From NCBI GenBank assembly GCA_963758525.1, contig CAVWVQ010000003.1, forward strand, positions 2,048,001 to 2,112,000: a stretch of 64,000 nt of DNA, written 5' to 3'. The stretch is from an uncultured Phycisphaerales bacterium. Lineage in GTDB: Bacteria > Planctomycetota > Phycisphaerae > Tepidisphaerales > Tepidisphaeraceae. The notes below the pieces were generated by a model. The model was not told the DNA's origin and did no database searches. It saw only the letters and a program-made list of their open reading frames with translations. Shown here piece by piece: positions 8,099-52,559 of this stretch. Made by a program: the position numbers and the translations under genes. Position 1 is the stretch's first letter. Each line of letters starts with the position of its first letter.

Positions 8099-8750
8099 GT
8101 TCGTTTTTCCTGGCAACAGGGTGGTTGAGCGCCTCATGGCTGCCATGACTGCATTGCTTTGCGAATGCTGATGGAGCGAAGGAAATTGCCAGCGCAATCT
8201 TGACTTCCGCATCATCCTACCGCGTCCTCCTCCAACAACGCTTTCATGTTTCACGACTCCCGACATCCGACAATCCGACAGTCCCGCCCTTGCCTTCCAT
8301 CTTTCGCGTCCGGTAATGTTGGCAGCGACACGCAATTCGTCAACTCGGCCCCGTCCCCCGGAAATACCGGGGGAGGGGAAAAGAGCATTCCAGCCGAAAG
8401 TGTCACAGACCCCCCACCTGCTGAGTATCGCAAATCAACATGCCTGAAAAATGGAAGCATTCATGCGGTTCGTCGCTCATACTAACAACCAGCTTGCAAT
8501 GCCTGCTGATACGCCAAGCATCGGAGATAGAACCCGGCGAACCAAATCGCCAGACGCAAGCATGGAAGGTGACCGGCAACTATCGCTTTCCAGCCTAGTC
8601 AAAACGTGAAAGCTATCGAGCCGGTTAGTTGGCATGATCCAACAGTGACGGCCAGCGCCGCGGCACCGGGGATCCTTGCAAAGCGAGTCTGAGGAGCACC
8701 GGAAGCGGTCGGAGAGCGAGAGGCGGGACAGTTTGCGGGAATTGCGCGAT

Positions 8751-12909: not shown

Positions 12910-13347
12910 CGCATCGTACGAAGTCTCTGATCAATCGATCAATCTGCGTGCATCTGCGTTTATCAGCGGTTAAATCTCTTTCAAGAAAGGGAACCGCAGA
13001 TGAACGCAGATGAACGCAGATTGAATGAAATCACTGAGAAGATCATCGGCTGCGCATACGATGTTGCATGGACTGGGAAGCGGGTTCCTGGAGAAAGTCT
13101 ATAAGAACGCTTTGCGCATCGTACGAAGTCTCTGATCAATCTGCGTGCATCTGCGTTTATCAGCGGTTAAATCTCTTCCCCTGAGCGGACGCCGCTGCTG
13201 GTGTGACCGCTTATCAAACAGAAGAAAGGGAACCGCAGATGAACGCAGATGAACGCAGATTGAATGAAATTACTGAGAAGCGCATCGTACGAAATCTCTG
13301 ATCAATCTGCGTTCATCTGCGTTGATCAGCGGTTCAATCTCTTTCCT
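12910..13347 (+). mobile_element. Tandem of three truncated or internally deleted GxxExxY-element derivatives (A: 3' end only; B; C)
   Basis: Nucleotide match to the 5' and 3' ends of gene 39915..40298 and to its flanking 33-bp inverted repeats and leader. Confidence 0.85.
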
Positions 13348-14441: not shown

Positions 14442-14519
14442 GTTCCCAGCTCCACGCCGAATCCACCGCGATCATTGAAGCTCGCTGGGAATCCGCCTTC
14501 ACAATGGTTGATAAAGCGA

Positions 14520-14695
14520 TGCCGCTGCTGGTGTGACTGCTTTCTCAAACAGAAGAAAGGGAACCGCAGATGAACACAGATGAACGCAGATTGAATAAAA
14601 TCACTGAGAAGATCATCGGTTGCGCATACGATGTTGCCAATGGGCTGGGAGGTCTCTGATCAATCTGCGTTCATCTGCGTTTATCAGCGGTTCAA
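14520..14695 (+). mobile_element. Internally deleted GxxExxY-element derivative (copy D)
   Basis: Leader gccgctgctggtgtgactgc...aagaaagggaaccgcag, both inverted repeats, and mini-ORF 14570..14659 MNTDERRLNKITEKIIGCAYDVANGLGGL*. Confidence 0.85.
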
Positions 14696-28295: not shown

Positions 28296-30774
28296 CTACT
28301 TCACTTCCCACTCGAGAATGCCGCCGGAGAAGTCGTTCTGGAGCTTTACATTGAGGCGCAGCGCGGTGGTGTTGATCTTGCTGAAGCTCTGCGGGTTCAA
28401 CCGATTGGCGGCAACGCCGCCGAGGGAATCTGCCACTGCGCGTTTCCATGAGTCGCCGGCGCGATAGAGCACCTGCCATGCCGTGGGGACGCGGCATTGG
28501 CCGTGGCCGGTGTCGTCAAACCAGTAGACTGCGACGCCGGAAATATCCTGCGGCGTCTTGAAGTCGTATTGCACCCACTCCTCGGTTCCCTTGTGGTCCC
28601 ACCAGGTGAAGCGCGGAACGTTTTCGTCAGCGGAGGAAGCGGGGAGGATTCCGTCGTTGAGTGCATCCAGCGTATCGGGCCCGAGAAACGATGATGTGAC
28701 TTTCGCGCCCGCGGCCGGGCCGTGCGCGCGCGGGGGCCGGCCAGTCGTGAGCATCCGCGCCGGTTCCGATGACGGGAAATGCGCTGATGCGCAGGCGGGC
28801 CGCGCCCATCGGAATGAGCGTGATCGGCTCGACAGGTTCATCGGATCGCACGGGACTGGCCTGCAGCGGCATCAGGAGTTCTCGGCTGTCGGTCTTCCAG
28901 TTGAGCATCTTCCGGCCGCTGGCGTGAATTGCGAGGGGCGCTGTTTCGGGAGTGAAGGGCTGGGTCGCCGTTACGCCGTCTCTCCTGACCAGTTCCAGGG
29001 ATGCCGCGGGATCCTTCGCATCGAGCACCAGGCCGTAGTTCCACGGCGTCGTGGGACGCACCTCCTGCTCGGGGAACTGGTCGGTTCCGCCATAGCGAGA
29101 CCACTTTTCGCCAATGTCGAGTGAAAACGTGATCGGGCCGTAATTCACGGAGACCGCGTCTTTGTTTTTGGTCCATGTCTTTGTTCGTACTTTCATGGGA
29201 AGCTTGAGCGTGACGGTGTCGGCATCGGCCCATGTCCGGGAAATAGCGATGAAGTGATCGGGCCGGGCGTCGACCGCCACATCTTTCCTATTGATGGAGA
29301 CCGCGGGGTTCTCGCACCAGCCGGGCACGCGCAAATAGAGCGGAAAGTCCAACGGCTTGGCGGTCGATACCTTGAACTCAATCGCGTCGCTGAAGGGATA
29401 ATCCGTAACCTCCGAGATCCTCACGTTGGAGCCATTGGCGACTTTCGCATTCACCTCGCTGGCCGCGTACAGCGTGGCGGCAAGGCCGCCGTCGCTGGTG
29501 GCAGACCACATTTCCTCGGCGAAATACGGCCATCCCATGGCGTGATTGTGCTGGCAGCACCGATAGACGCCCAACGGGCTGTACGAAAACATGGTCCCGC
29601 CGTTCTGGATTCCCGGCGCTTTGTTTTCCCTGTCCAACTGCACCTGATTCGGGGCCGTGAGATAATGCAGAGCCTTCAGATCCGGCGTGAGCGCGGCAGG
29701 AAGAGAGTTGAACGCGAGTTCTTCACAACGATCGGCCCACGCTGCGTCCCCGCTGATTCGGCTCAGCATCTCGAAGCTGTGCATGAATTCGACGATCCCA
29801 CAGGTTTCGAAACCTTGCCGCGGATCGGTGAAGCCCGCCCGGCAGTTCTCATCTCCGCAGAAGCCGCCGCCTGGAACCTGTCCATAGATGCCCATCAGCG
29901 TGTTGTAGACATTCGCCGTGGCGGAATAGTCGGCTGGGCTCTTTGACTGCATGGAGTATTCCGCCGGCTCACGAAAGCCTTCGGCAAGATTGACGTTGTG
30001 CCAATTGGGCACGCCTTTGGTCCATGCGGCTGCGTGCCTGTGCAATTTCGCGGCAAGCTCCAGGAGCCAGGCATCGCCGGTCCGGTTATAGAGCCAGTAG
30101 ACGCTTTCCAGATTGTCGCCGGTTCGCATCTTGTCCCAATAGCCGCTGATAAACTGGTCGTCGGGAATCTGCAGCTCCCATTTGAAATACCGCGTCATGA
30201 GATCGATCGCGCGCTGGTCGCTGCTGAATTCGTAGTAGCTCTGCATGGCGTTCAGGATCGGCATGTGCGGCCAAAGATCGGGCTTGCCCCTGAGGGCGGT
30301 GCGAAGTCCCTGCGGGCCGAAAAAACCATCCGGCGATTGCGCCGCAAAGATCGCATCCAGCCATCGCTTCGCGTCGGCGGTGATGCGCTGATCTCCAAGG
30401 ACATAGCCCAAATCGCCGAAGCCCCGGAGCCAGTATGGAACTTCTTCCCATCCGTTTTTCCCTTCTCCCCTGGGATCGGTCCAGCCGTTGCCGTCAAACT
30501 TGCACCAGGGAGAAAGCTCCTCGAGGTGCCCGGCCATTCCGTCGGCTTCGAGGATGAGCATTTCGCGGAGCCAGCCCTTGGGCGTGATGCTTCCAATCGG
30601 AAGTCTGGCCATGGGCACCGACGCCAGCGGCGCACGGTTTGCGATCACCTGCCAATGAATGCCATCGACCGGGGGCGCAGAAACGCTTGTGACCGAATCA
30701 GCGTTCAGCGGGCTTGTCGGGATCGAGATGAAACACAGAACCAGACTCAGACTGCGCCCGATGTTCGAAATCAT
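28296..30774 (-). CDS. GH127/GH146-like beta-L-arabinofuranosidase with C-terminal F5/8-type (discoidin) module; frameshift near 28735
   Basis: GWEEVPYW, HNVNLAEG, FETCGIVEFM, RCCQHNH and LIPMGAARLRI; tail WWDHKGTEEWVQYDF in ORF 28296..28841. Confidence 0.85.
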
Positions 30775-30812
30775 CCTCACCCCCGCCCTCTCCCGGAATA
30801 CCGGGAGAGGGG
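30757..30812. repeat. REP-like palindrome, ccctcaccc-ccctctccc family copy 1
   Basis: cctcacccccgccctctcccggaataccgggagagggg; related copies at 44617 and 52373-52488. Confidence 0.8.
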
Positions 30813-31076
30813 GTAGGCCGCTCGAAGTTCTGAAGCATCTTGCAAAGACGTGACGAAGCCCCGCGCAAGTTGTGCGGTCCTTAGTCCATCGATCGGAATA
30901 TGCCTTTGCCACATGCCTCGATTTCAAAAACTGATCTCGATTGCCGCCCCCGCCTGTTAGGGATACAACGCTGAACGCAACGGCGTTGGTTCGGGATCGA
31001 TAGGTTTTCATTTCTCGCTTGAGTGTCGCTCCGAAATCATCGCCGATCGCTTGTGCGACGACAACGCGGAGGTTTT

Positions 31077-36079: not shown

Positions 36080-37762
36080 ATGCCTTCGGATCAATCAACG
36101 CGGGATCGGCGTTTTATCGCCCCGGTGCAATGCGACATCTGCGGGGTGTCGGCGCCGGGTCTGCGCCTGATTAAAGATGTGGCGGGGTCGGGATATTGCG
36201 ATTCGTGCTTTCGGCGGCTGCGGAGCGGAACCGAGGAGATTCCGGAAAGCGACGGGGTTCGATTTCGCTGTTCGACCTGCGGGACTCCAACGAAGCCGCG
36301 CGAGCTGCGGGAACTGGGCGAGCAGTTGATCTGCCGGAAATGCCTGGCGTCAACTTCGGGGGATAGTTCGGCGGGCTCGGTGGCGGGAATGTCGCTGGCG
36401 GGGGCACGGGCTGCCGCCACCGCCGCCAATGCGGCGGAGATCGTGGCGCATCTCGAGGGGCCGCTGCCAGGGAACATTCTTCAGAAGCTGACGTGCCCGC
36501 ATTGCTGGAATGTTTTTCCGCCAGATCAGATCCTGTGGATCTCGCAGCATGCGGAGTTGATGGGAGATCCGGTGCTGGGGGCCGAGGCGCCGGTGCGGTT
36601 TCGGCCCAGCCGGTTTAACGCGCGGGGCGAAGCGCTCGATGGGCGCGACGTGCCGTGCCAGCATCTGGCGTGTCCGCGATGTCATCTGGAGTTGCCGCGG
36701 GCCGTCATCGAGGCTGAGCCGCTGTTCATGTCGATCATTGGAGCGCCCGCCAGCGGGAAATCGCATTTGCTGGCGAGCATGACGTGGGCGCTGCGACGGC
36801 TGCTGCCGGAGAAATTCTCACTGGCGTTCAACGATGCGGACACGCTCTCGAATCACATTCTCGCGGGATATGAGCAGACGCTCTTTTTCGCGGACGACAC
36901 CGATCTGCCGGTGGCGATCCAAAAGACCGAGCTGCACGGCGAACTCTATGACGAAGTGCGCCTCGGCCAGCAGATCATCAGTCTTCCGCGGCCGTTCCTA
37001 TTTACGCTCCGCCACACAGGGCGTGCCATCGGGCAGACGGACGCGGCCCGAATGCGCGTCATCTGCCTGTACGACAACGCGGGCGAGCACTTTCATCCGG
37101 GGATGGACTCGCTGTCGTCACCCGGCACGCAGCACCTGGCCAAGTCGCGCGTGCTGCTGTTTCTGTTCGATCCGACGCAGAACCCGCGCTTCCGCGATCA
37201 TTGCCGAACCTTCAGCTTCGATCCGCAGCTCTACGGCGCATCCCGCACCGAGCGGCAGGAGACGATCCTCACCGAGTCGGCGCAGCGGGTTCGACGATAC
37301 GTCGGGCTCTCCCCACACAAGAAGCACGACCGGCCGCTGCTGGTGATCGTCTCCAAAGCGGATATCTGGGCTCCGCTGCTCAAGGCAAACATCGACACCG
37401 AGCCGCTGGTTTCGGTTGGTGACGGATCGTCGGCCGCGGTCGATCTGCCGCGCATCGAGGAGACGTCGCGCGAGCTGCGGTCGCTGCTCAAGACGTGGGC
37501 GCCGGAGTTCGTGGCGGCAGCGGAAGACTTCTGCAACACGGTGCTGTACGTTCCGGCAAGCGCACTGGGGCGCGGGCCGGAATTGAAGGAGGAGACGGGG
37601 CTGCTGACGATCCGCCCGCGCGACATCCATCCGAAGTGGGTGACGGTGCCGGTGCTGTATATGCTGGCGAAGTGGGCGTCTGGCGTGCTCCCGGCGGTGC
37701 GAGCGCCGCAGGCTGCGAAGGCAAAGGCGTCCGCGCCGGTTCCGTCGCAGCGGAAGCAGTAG
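36080..37762 (+). CDS. TRAFAC-clade GTPase (double-GTPase-like) with N-terminal Zn-ribbon CxxC pairs
   Basis: G1 GAPASGKS, G3 YDNAGEHF, G4 SKAD; six CxxC pairs including CPHCW and CPRCH. Confidence 0.8.
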   Translation: MPSDQSTRDRRFIAPVQCDICGVSAPGLRLIKDVAGSGYCDSCFRRLRSGTEEIPESDGVRFRCSTCGTPTKPRELRELGEQLICRKCLASTSGDSSAGSVAGMSLAGARAAATAANAAEIVAHLEGPLPGNILQKLTCPHCWNVFPPDQILWISQHAELMGDPVLGAEAPVRFRPSRFNARGEALDGRDVPCQHLACPRCHLELPRAVIEAEPLFMSIIGAPASGKSHLLASMTWALRRLLPEKFSLAFNDADTLSNHILAGYEQTLFFADDTDLPVAIQKTELHGELYDEVRLGQQIISLPRPFLFTLRHTGRAIGQTDAARMRVICLYDNAGEHFHPGMDSLSSPGTQHLAKSRVLLFLFDPTQNPRFRDHCRTFSFDPQLYGASRTERQETILTESAQRVRRYVGLSPHKKHDRPLLVIVSKADIWAPLLKANIDTEPLVSVGDGSSAAVDLPRIEETSRELRSLLKTWAPEFVAAAEDFCNTVLYVPASALGRGPELKEETGLLTIRPRDIHPKWVTVPVLYMLAKWASGVLPAVRAPQAAKAKASAPVPSQRKQ

Positions 37763-37793
37763 ATGCGGAGGAAAGAACCGCGGAAATCATACG

Positions 37794-38524
37794 ATGGCCT
37801 GGGAGCTTTATTACACGTCGGCGCGCGCGGCTTGCGAATCGGGAGCAGGGGGTTCTGCACCGTGGCGCGGACGGAAGGGATGCCGTTGGCGACAGCCGAT
37901 CGGCTTGAATCGCTCAGCGGATATCAGCCGGCCGCGGCGCACGCCAGCAATCCGGCGGGCGCGCCGGCGTTGCTTGCCCATTGGCGTCTTGCGACCCTGG
38001 GACGGCCGCGCAGCGTGCTTTCGCGCGTTGCAATGGGGGGCTCGGATTATTCGGGGCGGCTCAACAAGTTCGCGTATCACTTGATGCTCGAGACTGCCGA
38101 GCAGGCGGCCGCGGGACCGGCGTGGATGCTGGCGCAGCCGGGGATCATGAAGACAACGTGGGAAGGAGAACCGCGCGTGCTACCCCCCTTGAGGTTGTCG
38201 ATTTCCGCCGGGAGCGACGGGTTATCGGACCAGGCGGCGGGCAATTGTCATGCGCGCGTCTTAGCCGATGCATTTGTGGCGGACGCGACAAAATCCGCCT
38301 GCGTCGTCTATCCGCCCGGCGTCGACCCATTGCCGTTGCTGGCGGACGCGCTGGCGCTGTTGGACGCGCGGCTGCGCTGGCAGGTGACCTTCAGCACGTG
38401 CTTCAGCGAGCTGTCGGCGGGGCTGAGTTGCAACTGGCGTTGCATGCCCGCGGGAACCCCCGCCGCGGCTGATGCGGCGCGTCATGCCACCAGCGGTGTG
38501 GTGATCGATCTGACTGCGCACTGA
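37794..38524 (+). CDS. GTPase-associated protein 1 N-terminal type-2 (GAP1-N2)-like protein; frameshift near 37825
   Basis: MAWELYYTSA (ORF 37794) joins RGLRIGSRGFCTVARTEGMP...LESLSGY...DYSGRLNKFAYH...RWQVTFST (ORF 37763). Confidence 0.7.
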
Positions 38525-38526
38525 AC

Positions 38527-39546
38527 ATGGTGGATTACAAGGAGATTCCCGAGCTCATCCGCGCCTTCCTGGCCGCCAGCGACTCCGCGGGCCAGCGGGG
38601 GTGGAACGATGAAACCGCTGACCTGGCGGCGTCCTATATCACGCTGGTCAAGGAAGCCAACGACCGGCTGCGGCGCTGCGCCGAATACCTGCAGCGCGGG
38701 ATGCGATCCGAGGCGATTCACCTGGCGGAATGTCAGCCGAGATTGCTCGAACTGGCCGAGGCGCTGCGTCTTCCCGACCCGGCGGTGTGGACGCGCGCCT
38801 GCATGGCGCACGGGCTTCCCCCGCCCCCGGAGTTACTGACCGATGGATTGGACAAGATCGAGGAAGCATTCGGCATCGAGCGCGCCCTCGAGCCGCTGCT
38901 GGCGCGGCATCGGCTGCTGGCGCTGGCGCAGTCGCCTGTGAAAAACCGCCAGGAAGTGCTCCGGGCGGTCTTCGAGCAGGATCCGGAAAATCCGAGTTGG
39001 GACGAAGGGCTGCGCCTGCTAGACGTCGCGCGGTTCAAGGAGCTGCGCGCCGAGGCCAAGGTCGCGTTTAACGCGCATGACCGCGCGGCATTGGAGCGGC
39101 TGGTCGATGAGTTGGAAACGCACCCCCCGCGCGCGGCGGTGCCGGATGATTTGCGGGACGGATTGAACAAGGCGTTGAACTCCGTACGGCTCGAAGCGGC
39201 GCGGAAGCTGCTGTTGCCGCTGCTTGGCGAGCTCGACGCGGCGCGGGCGGCGGGAAATTACGAGGTGGCGACGGAGTTGCTGGGCCGATGGCAGCAAACC
39301 GTGGACGCGGCGAAGGTGGTTTTGCCGCCTGAGCTTCAACAGAAGGTGCGACCGACAATCGTGTGGCTCGCGTCGGAAAGTCATCGACAGGGTGTCGAGC
39401 GAAAGCGCCAAATGATTCAGCCGATCATTCAGACGGGCCAGCGTGACATCAAATCGGTGCAGCGCAATCGCAACCTGCTGATCGGCGGGATCGGCGCTGC
39501 CGCGGCACTCGTTGGCTGGGGCCTCGTACACCTGTTGCGTCATTGA
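38527..39546 (+). CDS. Alpha-helical protein with C-terminal TM anchor, GTPase-operon associated
   Basis: Starts 2 nt after the previous stop; NDRLRRCAEYLQRGMRSEAIHLAE; C-terminal LLIGGIGAAAALVGWGLV. Confidence 0.7.
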   Translation: MVDYKEIPELIRAFLAASDSAGQRGWNDETADLAASYITLVKEANDRLRRCAEYLQRGMRSEAIHLAECQPRLLELAEALRLPDPAVWTRACMAHGLPPPPELLTDGLDKIEEAFGIERALEPLLARHRLLALAQSPVKNRQEVLRAVFEQDPENPSWDEGLRLLDVARFKELRAEAKVAFNAHDRAALERLVDELETHPPRAAVPDDLRDGLNKALNSVRLEAARKLLLPLLGELDAARAAGNYEVATELLGRWQQTVDAAKVVLPPELQQKVRPTIVWLASESHRQGVERKRQMIQPIIQTGQRDIKSVQRNRNLLIGGIGAAAALVGWGLVHLLRH

Positions 39547-39643
39547 GGACGAGGCGCTGGCTGCGCCCGCAACCCAAAGCAAAGAATCTGACCGCGGATG
39601 AACGCAGGGAAAGAGATTGAACCGCTGATAAACGCCGATGAAC

Positions 39644-39903
39644 CCAGCGCTGCCTCGCTTCGCTCGGCCGCAACCAAACGAAGAGCCGCGAAGACGCGAA
39701 GACGCGAAGAGAGACGCGAAGGTAAGAAAATCAAAAATGCGGGATCGAAGCCCAAGGAATTGTGCCTTCGGGTTTCAGGTGCAATTGAATTGTCTTCCTT
39801 CGCGTTTGTCTTCGCGTCTTCGCGTCTTCGCGGCTCTTGATCTTTTGGCTGATCGCCTGCCCGGGAAAATTTGCGCAGCGCGCGAAGATCTCAATGGGTT
39901 GTG
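39644..39903. mobile_element. 260-bp non-coding insertion (cgcgaag-hairpin element) copy 1
   Basis: Splits the downstream IR as gatgaAC[260 bp]ACgcagatt; near-identical inverted copy at 47629-47887. Confidence 0.8.
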
Positions 39904-39914
39904 ACGCAGATTGG

Positions 39915-40298
39915 TCAGAGACTTCGTACGATTCGTTTAATGTCCACTTGTGGTTTCCCGAAGTTAATCAAGAGGCAAATGTGAAGGCCGGTCGCCTTGA
40001 GATAGTTGATGCATTGTGCCATGTGGATCTCGTCGAATGACTTCACTACCTTGAGTTCCACGATGACACATCCTTCAACCAACAGGTCCGCGTAATAATC
40101 GCCTGCTACCTCGCCGCGCCACAGGACTGGTATCGGATGCTGCTGCGAAACCGCGAGGCCCACATGACGCCGCTCGATGCGTAAAGCGTTCTCATAGACT
40201 TTCTCCAGGAACCCACTTCCCAGCCCATTGGCAACATCGTATGCGCAACCGATGATCTTCTCAGTGATTTCATTCAATCTGCGTTCATTTGCGTTCAT
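39915..40298 (-). CDS. GxxExxY protein (PD-(D/E)XK nuclease-like)
   Basis: GSGFLEKVYENAL, YADLLVEGCVIVELK, AQCINYLKATG and LLINFG; RBS aagaaaggga. Confidence 0.92.
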   Translation of the reverse strand: MNANERRLNEITEKIIGCAYDVANGLGSGFLEKVYENALRIERRHVGLAVSQQHPIPVLWRGEVAGDYYADLLVEGCVIVELKVVKSFDEIHMAQCINYLKATGLHICLLINFGKPQVDIKRIVRSL

Positions 40299-40572
40299 CT
40301 GCGGTTCCCTTTCTTCTGTTTGGCAAAGCAGTCACACCAGCAGCGGCGTCGCCGACAGCATCGTGAAGAAGTGACGACGAATGCTTGGAGTTTAACGTAG
40401 AGAAGGGAGAGGTTGAACCGCGGATAAATGCCCTGAGGGCTGCCCCCAACGCAAGGCACGAAGGGAGGAAGGAGGGTGCTTGTTAAGAAAACAAGATGTG
40501 ACAATCTTGCTATGCGGGGCAACGACGCAGTATTTCCAGTCGTCCGGCGCCGCCCATTGCCGTGGAAGCGGA

Positions 40573-41895
40573 TCACGCCAGAAGCTGATCGTAGACCTTC
40601 TGGACCTTTTCGACGGTGTGTGCGATGGTGAATTGCTCGCCGACCCGCAGGCGTCCGCGCTCTCCCATCTGCGCCGCCGCCTGCGGGTCGGAGAGCATCT
40701 GACAGATCGCTTCGGCCATCGCCACGGGATCGCCCATCGGAACCAGCAGACCGGTTTCCCCATGCACGACGATTTCGGGAACGCCGCCGCCGTTGGTCGC
40801 CACGACAGGCTTCCCCAGCGACATCGCCTCGATTAATACTTGTCCGAATGGCTCGCCGGTGGTCGAGGCATGAACCAGCAGATCGATGCCCGCCATGTAT
40901 TGCTGAATGTTGCCGCGGAATCCCAGGAAGTCCACGTAGTCCTGCGTGCCGAGCTGGATCGCAAGCTCGCGGACTTCGGTCTCGTATTCTTTTTCATCGA
41001 AGAGCGCCGCGCCGACGATCTGAAACCGCGCCTCGGGAAACCGCCGGTGCGTCCACGCCGCCGCCTGCAGGAAAATGTGCTGACCCTTCCATCGCGTGAT
41101 GCGGCCCACCAGCGCCACGCAAGGGCCCCCGCAGCGCGTCACAGGGCCCTGTTCTTCGGTTGTGGTGCCGGTCCCGGAATCTGGCGCGGTAACGGTTCCG
41201 TCATGCACGACGCGCACGCCCGTGCGCGCGCCGATCGTGTCCCCATCATGCTCGTCCAGGCTGCGGGAGGACTCGATTGCGATGCCCGAGGGAATCGCCG
41301 CCGAACTCTGGGACCGGCGGCGGAGGGTGTTGAGCGTTGCACCGGAATTGGCGATGACCCACGTTGGGATAAACTTGGTCAGCACGCGAAACGCGTAGAC
41401 AACGGGGCTGGGCAGATAGTCGGAGTCGATGCGATCGCGAACGTGCCAGATCACCACCTTGCGGCAAAACCGCGCCGCCAAACCGCCGATGATGTCGGAT
41501 TTGAGAGAATTGGTGTGAACCAGGTCGACGTTCAGCCGGCGGATCCGCCGCGTGACTCCAAACACCGCGAGCAGCGTCTGATGAACTTCGCGAAGCCGCA
41601 GGAGTGACCGGACGCCCAGAGTATCCTTGCGCGCGTGCAGAACGCTGCCGGCAATCGAATAGAGATGCGTCTCGATCCCTGCGTCTTCCAGCTTGACGCG
41701 CAGCGGCCCGTCCTGCAGGAGAAGCACAACCGGGACGTACCGGCTCGTGTCGAGATTCTTGACGAGATTCAGCAGCGCGATTTCGCCGCCTCCCAGCGCG
41801 GCGGTGTGATCGATGTACAGCACGCGCCGGGGCGCGATCGCGTCCGCGACAGGCAACTCCGTTATTCCATCGATCGTTTGCGTCACGCTGCTCAC
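40573..41895 (-). CDS. GT4 glycosyltransferase
   Basis: GGGEIALL, VGRITRWKGQ and EPFGQVLIEAMSLGKPVV. Confidence 0.9.
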   Translation of the reverse strand: MSSVTQTIDGITELPVADAIAPRRVLYIDHTAALGGGEIALLNLVKNLDTSRYVPVVLLLQDGPLRVKLEDAGIETHLYSIAGSVLHARKDTLGVRSLLRLREVHQTLLAVFGVTRRIRRLNVDLVHTNSLKSDIIGGLAARFCRKVVIWHVRDRIDSDYLPSPVVYAFRVLTKFIPTWVIANSGATLNTLRRRSQSSAAIPSGIAIESSRSLDEHDGDTIGARTGVRVVHDGTVTAPDSGTGTTTEEQGPVTRCGGPCVALVGRITRWKGQHIFLQAAAWTHRRFPEARFQIVGAALFDEKEYETEVRELAIQLGTQDYVDFLGFRGNIQQYMAGIDLLVHASTTGEPFGQVLIEAMSLGKPVVATNGGGVPEIVVHGETGLLVPMGDPVAMAEAICQMLSDPQAAAQMGERGRLRVGEQFTIAHTVEKVQKVYDQLLA

Positions 41896-44466: not shown

Positions 44467-44672
44467 AGATCGAAGTCATAGAGCCGACGAATCCTCGGGT
44501 CAACACGTGCCCGACCGTCTCTGCGCCGCCCCCTCTCCAGGTATTTTCGGGAGATCGAAGTCATAGAGCCGAGAAATCCTCCGGTCAATGCGGTGCATGA
44601 CCATCTCTGCACGCTGCCCCCTCTCCCGGCATTTCCGGGAGAGGGCTGGGGTGAGGCTGATTTCGAACGTAG
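44467..44672. repeat. ~85-bp imperfect tandem duplication ending in ccctctccc-family palindrome (copy 2)
   Basis: agatcgaagtcatagagccga at 44467 and 44552, with similarity continuing through ccccctctcc..g..attt.cgggaga. Confidence 0.75.
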
Positions 44673-44714
44673 GGGATCTCTTGGTATTCGCAGGCTCAAA
44701 GCCCGCACGACAAC

Positions 44715-47341: not shown

Positions 47342-47368
47342 ATTGGAGCTCGAAGCGCGGATTTCGCG

Positions 47369-48009
47369 GCGCTGGCCTCGCCCGCAACCCAAATCAAAGA
47401 ATCTGACCGCGGATGAACGCAGGGAAAGAGATTGAACCGCTGATAAACGCCGATGAACGCAGATTGATCAGAGACTTCGTACGACGCGTTTAACGCCCAA
47501 TTGCAAGTTCCCGAAGTTGATCAAGAGGCAAATGTGAAGGCAGGAACCCACTTCCAGCCCATTGGCAACATCCTATGCGCAGTCGGTGTTCTTCTCAGTG
47601 ATTTCATTTAATCTGCGTTCATTTGTGTCACAACCCATTGAGATCTTCGCGCTGCGCAAATTTTCCCGGGCGGGCGATCAGCCAAAAGATCAAGAGCCGC
47701 GAAGACGCGAAGCCGCGAAGACAAACGCGAAGGAAGACAATTCAATTGCACCTGAAACCCGAAGGCGCAATTCCTTGGGCTTCGATCCCGCATTTTTGAT
47801 TTTCTTACCTTCGCGTCTCTCTTCGCGTCTTCGCGTCTTCGCGGCTCTTCGTTTTGGTTGCGGCCGAGCGAAGCGAGGCAGCGCCGGGTTTATCTGCGGT
47901 TCCCTTTCTTCTGTTTGATAAAGCATTCACACCAGCAGCGGCGTCGCCGACAGCATCGTGAAGAAGTGACGACGAATGCTTGGAGTGTAACGTAGAGAAG
48001 GGAGAGGTT
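47369..48009 (-). mobile_element. Degenerate, internally deleted GxxExxY element (copy E) with nested insertion
   Basis: Matches 39554-40414 at both ends; ORF deleted between FL and LHICLLINFG (join 47540/47541) with an internal TAG. Confidence 0.82.
47629..47887. mobile_element. 259-bp non-coding insertion (cgcgaag-hairpin element) copy 2
   Basis: Reverse complement of 39644-39903; on the - strand it splits the upstream IR as gataaAC[insert]ACacaaatgaacgcagatt. Confidence 0.8.
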
Positions 48010-52264: not shown

Positions 52265-52372
52265 AAGGCATCTTTTATCAGAAATTCCCGGCGTTCAGAA
52301 TGGCGCGCTGGTGGTGAACGGTCAGGGTACGCGAATTCCCGGGGCACCTGTTCGCGGCGATGCCCGCCCTTG

Positions 52373-52488
52373 CCCCCTCTCCCGGTATTCCGGGAGAGGG
52401 TTGGGGTGAGGGTGCTTGGATCGACGAATGCCGTCGGTGCTCGAAATCACCCTCACCCTGTCCCTCTCCCGGAGTACCAGGAGAGGGG
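52373..52488. repeat. Inverted pair of ccctcaccc-ccctctccc palindromes (copies 3 and 4)
   Basis: cccctctcccggtattccgggagagggttggggtgagggt ... accctcaccctgtccctctcccggagtaccaggagagggg. Confidence 0.82.
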
Positions 52489-52559
52489 ATCGGAGGGCGT
52501 TCGCAGCGAAATTAAGCCACGTGCATTGCGACCAGGATGCTACATCACCGCAACGTCAC

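Follow-up and report, generated by a model that had tools for sequence, protein, structure and literature searches.

The locus studied here raises the question of what moves a small gene. In the genome of an uncultured Phycisphaerales bacterium, a GxxExxY gene lies within an inverted repeat of 10-bp units, and gene-less copies of the same sequence recur in the 64,000-nt stretch of DNA that we analysed (the window, to whose positions coordinates refer unless a contig is named). An earlier note on this DNA had proposed an autonomous/non-autonomous pair in which the inverted repeat is the cis element and the GxxExxY protein a candidate mobiliser. Our analyses bear out a mobile element with gene-less derivatives, but its outer cis-acting ends are those of an IS family, and GxxExxY is not a likely mobiliser of the focal unit, whose ends belong to that separate family.

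Extent, parts and copies of the focal element

The whole element, A, occupies positions 39551..40513 on the minus strand (963 bp, ends ±1), is larger than had been reported, and is non-autonomous, carrying no gene for its mobiliser. All its parts are read on the minus strand. The target-side end (40477..40514) is oriIS-like by layout, carries the motif YRNNRCAA..TCTTGTT with YYG before it, and aligns to those of three autonomous copies (L244, L259 and L250); the true 5' end of A thus lies at −216 from the ATG (window 40514). The leader (40307..40476), which is common to A copies, starts with a piece of a different tandem-arm family, the one with AAGGCACG units. The left arm (40274..40306) is made of three 10-bp units and contains the start codon, as the earlier note stated, the protein beginning MNANERRL. 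The GxxExxY (PDDEXK_3) gene follows at 39915..40298. The right arm, described previously as running on directly after the stop codon, is broken at this locus: arm comparison gives a first part (39906..39913) and a second part (39619..39643), split by a nested 262-bp miniature element, B (39644..39905), which sits at Y^G without duplication and consists of a target-side end, a CGCGAAGA-unit hairpin and a hairpin end. The letters quoted for an uninterrupted right arm are those of the copies at 13–14 kb. The inverted repeat itself is real, since the focal arms match at 29 of 33 positions once the insert is removed. The hairpin end of A (39551..39575) is terIS-like by layout and has a GGTTGCGG-loop-GCGC motif.

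Alignment of window 40514 and of the end motif revealed that the outer ends of A are two asymmetric IS-family ends, not the inverted repeat. A second two-ended copy in the focal genome assembly (G000:C3:3898405-3898800) has the same start base and the same end motif, with the gene deleted, and this copy, together with the match of the ends to the IS family, identifies 39551–40513 as the real unit. The focal insertion site, GCCCCGC^GTCCTC, is outside any tandem arm. A search of Rfam over element A returned no match, and a promoter/terminator scan was at chance level. The focal GxxExxY gene is convergent with its downstream neighbour. Directly downstream of A (36080-39546) lies a double-GTPase/GAP1 cluster (PF19993, weakly, PF20013 and PF20014), the last gene of which encodes 339 aa here and is longer in three relatives, so that it may have been truncated near the A insertion.

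The further copies reported for the window were all found, four of them internally deleted and one a 3' end only. Three tandem deleted pieces lie at 12910..13346 on the plus strand (the first 3'-only, the second with a junction from +124 to +367 and the third from +49 to +367), and a fourth at 14516..14695 on the plus strand (+81 to +377); none of these has either IS end. The copy at 47366..48009 on the minus strand (junction +93 to +311) keeps the hairpin end and is missing the target-side end. It had been said to share both outer ends with the focal copy; the 3' ends are indeed identical, but the 5' ends differ, the left edge of the 47.4-kb copy being at −115 from the ATG versus −216. A ~45-nt motif repeated at 8420, 8745, 11235, 13346 and 14740, beside the A pieces at 13–14 kb, lies upstream of paralogous prepilin-type genes and is probably their common upstream region.

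In the focal assembly, G000 (6.47 Mb in 6 contigs, 91% complete and 6% contaminated), A pieces are present at 13 loci, only one of which has an intact gene. The hairpin end terminates seven of the 13, including both outer ends that had been noticed as common, the target-side end is kept at two and lacking at 11, and six have neither IS end, among them four of the window's five deleted pieces. The left ends of the copies are ragged (−16 to −216), the arms giving no fixed outer boundary, and the only two copies with identical, exact ends on both sides are bounded by the IS ends and not by the arms. Deletion junctions have 1–8 nt of short homology. Some recur with different flanks, three loci sharing the +47 to +353 junction and two the +93 to +311 junction, which indicates that deleted forms of A have themselves been copied. 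Five of the seven hairpin-ended copies have short downstream sequence in common, in two groups, and may therefore not be independent insertions. The loci with missing ends would reflect either decay after insertion, or a hairpin end that alone is obligatory, or another copying process, possibly involving GxxExxY. Two of the deleted copies fold far better than shuffled sequences (z −9.0 and −7.4). Isolated end hairpins do no better than shuffles (z −0.3, −0.2 and +0.5; −2.0 for the target-side end of A), and the term hairpin end therefore rests on conservation, not energy.

Mobility is further indicated by an empty site of the kind the earlier note had suggested seeking. A 19.4-kb soil contig of a relative (~82% identity) holds both genes flanking A without the element between them, joining 39451 to 40583 with 122 letters versus 1131 in the window; this is a site in another species with the exact junction out of view, and loss there is possible. 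The corresponding regions of two same-genus and three same-family genomes were uninformative, as the flanking genes are not adjacent, and wherever the 3' end of an orthologue could be seen in these five, no A element lay downstream of it. We saw no excision in the short, sparse soil contigs of a near-identical strain (X1/X2) and no circle junction in assembled contigs. 'Go-back' joints in run X4 were set aside as possibly arrays or repeats of other organisms. Record 20 of the same run is a 384-nt contig with this GxxExxY gene at 96% identity, the orthologous flanks being ~82% identical; the gene could have been transferred recently, and the contigs cannot be tied to one organism.

An unnamed IS family with the same ends

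The earlier note had recognised no transposase, and this holds within the window, but the genome contains 23 Y1 (HUH) matches as well as ends of an enzyme-bearing family. A known IS family whose ends match and account for the spread had been named among the findings that would refute the earlier proposal; such a family was found, except that it is an unnamed one. In relatives the hairpin motif occurs at contig edges (G019, G049 and G007), upstream of an unnamed gene. Of 80 metagenome loci surveyed for the ends, 73 had sufficient flank, and in 65 of these the motif is upstream of the IS gene; the target-side motif follows the stop codon in 60 of 74. The motif being anchored solely within the element, 60 of 60 sites have G at flank position −1 and Y at both −2 and −3, giving a target consensus of CTYYG-Y^G and insertion at YYYGY^G without duplication. 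When filled and intact A arms are compared, the cut in YYYGYG falls between Y and G and no base is lost or duplicated; this register was inferred and could shift by a base or two.

The closed genome G157 contains at least 10 IS copies; in nine of them, 8 of 8 pairwise comparisons gave identities of at least 1543/1545, with sharp ends and different flanks. The IS gene was found in three of the five genomes with at least seven hairpin ends versus one of 56 others. In G000 it was not recovered by tblastn, by genome search or by an unfiltered HMM search (lowest E 1.2), and G005, with 10 hairpin ends, likewise yielded none. An ori profile search of G000 found two places, both of them A copies; the general target-side pattern missed the variants of G157 and G085. 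G019 and G007 (93% and 87% complete) have the IS with no TIGR04256 match, and the IS therefore does not need a GxxExxY gene. A Y1/RAYT helper was considered and rejected, as none of the 23 Y1 matches in G000 has these arms or ends in the 150 nt upstream, and the 10 read on both flanks carry other repeats. About a dozen of these 23 PF01797 matches are near-identical Y1 elements with terminal inverted repeats (CTGTTAAGGTGACATCCA type) that have spread recently and are unrelated to A.

The family prefers arms of the GxxExxY type as its target. At 36 of 44 reconstructed empty sites of autonomous copies the site lies in a run of tandem units 7–11 nt apart, versus 65 of 356 control YYGYG sites in flanks and 656 of 3000 in genomic sequence, and an inverted partner arm is present at 13 of 35 sites versus 14 of 400 controls. 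In G157, two GxxExxY cassettes have an IS copy in the left arm (L328 and L349) and a third has a 153-nt miniature next to it; a copy at L253 is likewise in a cassette arm. Captured genes were also found: the interval from the IS gene to the hairpin end holds a GxxExxY gene together with its right arm in L257, and in L262 an ORF that by eye is of the four-helix-bundle type. Capture of GxxExxY is rare, with IS ends within 380 nt at one of 170 GxxExxY loci. As to other cargo, the closed genome G085 (L354-L359, L350) has 99 hairpin-end matches, and its miniatures, some of them tandem, carry a GTCATTGCG-type hairpin that resembles Ssn-related repeats. A miniature in G157 (L352) has a short ORF fragment resembling, by eye, a bacterial RelE-type addiction-module protein.

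Judged by its sequence, B is a miniature of the same IS family that split the arms here. Its right end is the GGTTGCGG-loop-GCGC motif and its left end fits the family's target-side motif. It occurs at 13 sites in G000 with fixed ends, free sequence on the right and no duplication, its left flank is YYGY at 12 of the 13, and the 11 copies compared are 98.1–99.6% identical. Four B sites are inside A arms in the same register, including a second B at 47627..47887 on the plus strand, in the left arm of the 47.4-kb copy and in the same register within the 10-bp unit. The left-arm B occurs with two different deletions, each of which is also found without B. At G000:C3:573700-575653 and 4092494-4093896 there are tandem B arrays plus a captured 120-nt host segment. 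The four-unit form of the array, a 1.4-kb composite, is inserted exactly within a right arm of A; in the assembled contigs, the composite array would be compatible with read-through.

The IS gene encodes a protein of ~510 aa which, beyond a weak C-terminal helix-turn-helix, had no Pfam, NCBIfam or PDB sequence match. In particular, no HUH Y2 match was found for a family protein in these three resources, and none to PF02486 (Rep_trans) at E≤1 in seven family proteins. D20, D247, Y318-x-K320 and L325-R326-x-E328 are invariant in 95 sequences, and match motifs N', III and IV of Rep_trans among those listed in PMC5714925, motifs I and II being unmatched. The enzyme model (pLDDT 87.8) had as its best Foldseek match RepSTK1 (4CIJ; E=0.004, prob 0.84), 4CWE and TBP also being matched, with no E below 0.001 and low TM-scores. 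A VIA search matched residues 2-387 to the TBP fold at Z 8.1 (rmsd 3.5, 175 aligned), where a Z near 8 can be background, and the modelled C-terminus is a winged helix. Sequence motifs and model together predict an enzyme resembling a Rep_trans-type tyrosine nickase.

The GxxExxY protein and its arms across phyla

The 127-aa ORF at 39915-40298 (minus strand) is a clear GxxExxY member, matching TIGR04256 at E=2e-40 (137.6 bits versus a cut-off of 35) and PF13366 at E=2e-38 (131.7 bits versus a cut-off of 22). That GxxExxY proteins are PD-(D/E)XK-like, as the earlier note stated, is upheld: E32, D71, E81 and K83 are conserved in 168–173 of 173 sequences and present here along with Q95 and Y99, and the model (pLDDT 93.6) is closest to Cas4 and lambda-type exonucleases, with Cas4 SSO0001 the top structural match (E=6.5e-4). 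A PDB sequence search with the protein gave no match. PD-(D/E)XK hydrolases are not known to have a strand-joining step. The protein is probably a functional nuclease of the Cas4/lambda-exonuclease kind, linked to its own type of arm. The function of PF13366 is listed as unknown in PMC3424549, and the domain receives a mention in 10.1101/2021.01.26.428298.

The earlier note had suggested testing whether tandem-unit inverted repeats flank these genes across phyla, and they do bracket homologues in many phyla and co-vary with protein clade. Inverted tandem arms (score ≥30) bracket 98 of 110 homologue loci versus none of 387 shifted controls; 30 of the loci are from G000 and relatives and 80 are the closest GTDB matches, from many phyla including archaea, and the focal locus fails the score because its arm is split. 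Arm type follows protein clade, with 26 changes on the tree versus 52.2 when shuffled (0/200), the FastTree tree comprising 93 core sequences and 118 columns and leaving many forks open; a 52-row clade (support 91) has no T-ending units. The nuclease may therefore recognise its own arms. Within G000 there are three other GxxExxY genes, each with a different arm unit, so that four genes have four unit types, and four-helix IVP and DUF559 genes have their own arms.

Counts of ten-mer arms vary with the gene: there are 0–6 in 13 relatives without it, a median of 14 and up to 119 in 23 with a matching-type gene, and a median of 2 in 25 with only other-type or unfetched genes, eight of which have at least eight; kin in these sets are not independent, and the presence of G004 among the 13 changes nothing. 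G006, G018 and G030 have 77–119 ten-mer arms with 0–2 hairpin ends, which shows that this IS is not needed for arms to multiply. Of 29 cassettes in relatives, 14 map to eight operon junctions of G000, one of which holds a GxxExxY gene, the rest being empty or having other inserts. A crude ORF test gave the same orientation for the cassette and both neighbouring genes at 41 of 91 loci, and all 14 mapped junction cases are co-oriented. A frameshifted GxxExxY gene at G000:C3:1855542-1855847 shares operon junction and arm type with G016, of another genus, which we read as long-term retention at one site.

Inverted repeats with periodic arms are common in this genome: 224 were called, overlapping ones counted, and they fall into many families with units of 7, 8 or 10 bp. 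IVP genes are flanked by several of the 7-mer and 8-mer families, each gene having a family of its own. A long gene at G000:C3:4375000-4379500, resembling by eye an error-prone DNA polymerase III alpha subunit, is interrupted by tandem inverted repeats, some of them in frame, and by a four-helix IVP gene (PF05635, 4377228-4377545). Hairpins of the CCCTCTCCC type, which we take to be BoxC-like, are present in the window at 30750-30817, 44527-44674 and 52371-52493, are abundant in relatives, and also flank DUF559 genes at C3:1103306 and 1210856.

Origin of the unit and its relation to known elements

The explanation that we consider probable is that the 963-bp unit is a GxxExxY gene with its arms within the ends of the unnamed IS family, moved in trans by the family's ~510-aa enzyme, predicted to be of the Rep_trans type. 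GxxExxY is then likely cargo in this unit, with no sign of it moving the unit, because the ends are those of the IS family, the family prefers such arms, and a relative has the flanking genes without the element. The enzyme would nick one strand at one end; strand displacement of the IS91 or Helitron kind would follow, with release at the other end and joining to a target between Y and G. From the repeated landing of the family in arms it follows that a damaged or bypassed end plus a downstream end could capture the intervening DNA, in this instance the GxxExxY cassette. The long arms may then promote deletion of the gene through short homology, and some deleted forms would be copied again.

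A different explanation, which we hold to be unlikely for this unit, is that the GxxExxY nuclease recognises its own arms and spreads both the cassette and gene-less hairpins, in the manner of Ssn/NTS or RAYT/REPIN, with the IS ends as hitch-hikers. The near-universal bracketing of homologues by arms whose type tracks clade and not host, the ten-mer counts by gene type, the three arm-rich genomes nearly devoid of hairpin ends, the single filled junction among eight, the conserved catalytic residues and Cas4/lambda-exonuclease-like fold, and the six A loci without IS ends are all consistent with it. However, co-variation of arm and protein follows from linkage alone, a hydrolase of this class has no known strand-joining step, the eight arm-rich genomes with other-type or unfetched genes run against dependence on the matching gene, and the two exact-ended copies are bounded by IS ends, with no fixed arm boundary in G000. 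Even with the focal unit carried by IS ends, GxxExxY may still spread its own arms in the wider family.

Two other explanations were weighed. Without a dedicated mobiliser, host recombination, gene conversion and slippage among hairpin repeats could have produced the copies, with IS ends accumulating in neutral hairpins; the short homology at the junctions fits this, conversion could explain the combinations of B and deletions, and the assembly has no helper gene. We nevertheless judge it quite improbable in view of the base-exact ends, the strict target consensus and the unrelated flanks of B and of two A copies, together with the composite placed precisely in an arm and the empty orthologous site. 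That the arms serve mainly as an RNA stem through which the gene is looped out of operon transcripts or processed, as with intervening sequences of 23S rRNA, would suit the frequent position of cassettes at operon junctions and the similar arms of four-helix IVP genes in G000. It seems to us scarcely credible here, as the focal gene converges with its neighbour, its stem is broken by B, Rfam gave no match, and the IS ends and dispersed copies would be left unexplained.

Transport by the IS family invites comparison with IS91/ISCR and Helitrons, which likewise have ends that differ from each other, lack terminal inverted repeats, do not duplicate the target, capture neighbouring DNA and give rise to gene-less derivatives, with the target beside the end downstream of the gene and a subterminal palindrome at the upstream end. 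The layout of IS91 (target beside the downstream end, upstream palindrome, no duplication) is described in 10.1101/2025.01.24.634351, and rolling-circle insertion sequences are also treated in PMC5714925. By this analogy, transposition would be of a rolling-circle or strand-displacement type. Unlike IS91/ISCR, the family has no HUH/Y2 match, a predicted TBP fold with winged helix, and YYYGY^G in hairpin arms as its target in place of GTTC/CTTG. With Rep_trans/MOBT proteins (PF02486; RepSTK1 4CIJ, 4CWE) it appears to share the D...D...E, YxK and LRxE motifs and, by prediction, a TBP-like core, and with Rep-Arvir a C-terminal MarR-like winged helix, as described in the part of PMC13107129 consulted, which gives no transposase role for Rep_trans. 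It differs from them in having no PF02486 match and weak structural scores, and in its multi-copy chromosomal insertions in place of plasmids, phages or ICEs.

Ssn/NTS/SRM systems resemble the cassettes in having a small nuclease gene flanked by hairpin repeats, gene-less copies and many pairs, but Ssn is a GIY-YIG enzyme with demonstrated ssDNA cleavage (PMC11893778), whereas GxxExxY is a PD-(D/E)XK protein (PF13366) with tandem arms of 7–11-bp units. REPIN/RAYT systems (PMC3116915) similarly have one gene type per repeat type, gene-less doublets and repeats nested in repeats, but RAYT is an HUH Y1 enzyme, and the Y1 genes checked here carry other repeats. A classical MITE would have terminal inverted repeats as its outer ends and a duplicated target; here the arms are internal and there is no duplication. 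Some IS target REP sequences, as do members of the IS110 family such as IS621, for which a palindromic repeat is a safe site. IS110 elements encode a DEDD recombinase with a bridge RNA; the family described here is like them in specialising on an intergenic palindromic repeat and unlike them in its enzyme. Our literature search, with ISfinder and subscription journals outside its scope, turned up no publication describing GxxExxY arms or a transposase of the Rep_trans type.

Element A is thus real, mobile and larger than reported, and is probably the cargo of an undescribed element that resembles IS91 but has another type of enzyme. We tentatively extend this to a two-layer selfish ecosystem in many phyla, in which GxxExxY proteins may be sequence-specific ssDNA nucleases, each keeping its own family of tandem-arm hairpins, and a new class of transposon with a Rep_trans-fold enzyme may have specialised on these hairpins as its target, capturing and dispersing the cassettes and other small genes in the manner of Helitrons. 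The findings make the link between two large orphan families concrete and testable. The unnamed IS now has two described ends (~40 and ~25 bp), a target with its cut position and a predicted catalytic tyrosine, and GxxExxY has a candidate substrate for each clade. If true, a Rep_trans-fold transposase would be an enzyme type for which we found no paper, and the spread of 'mobile elements' made up of GxxExxY and hairpins can be due to a second element that is not annotated.
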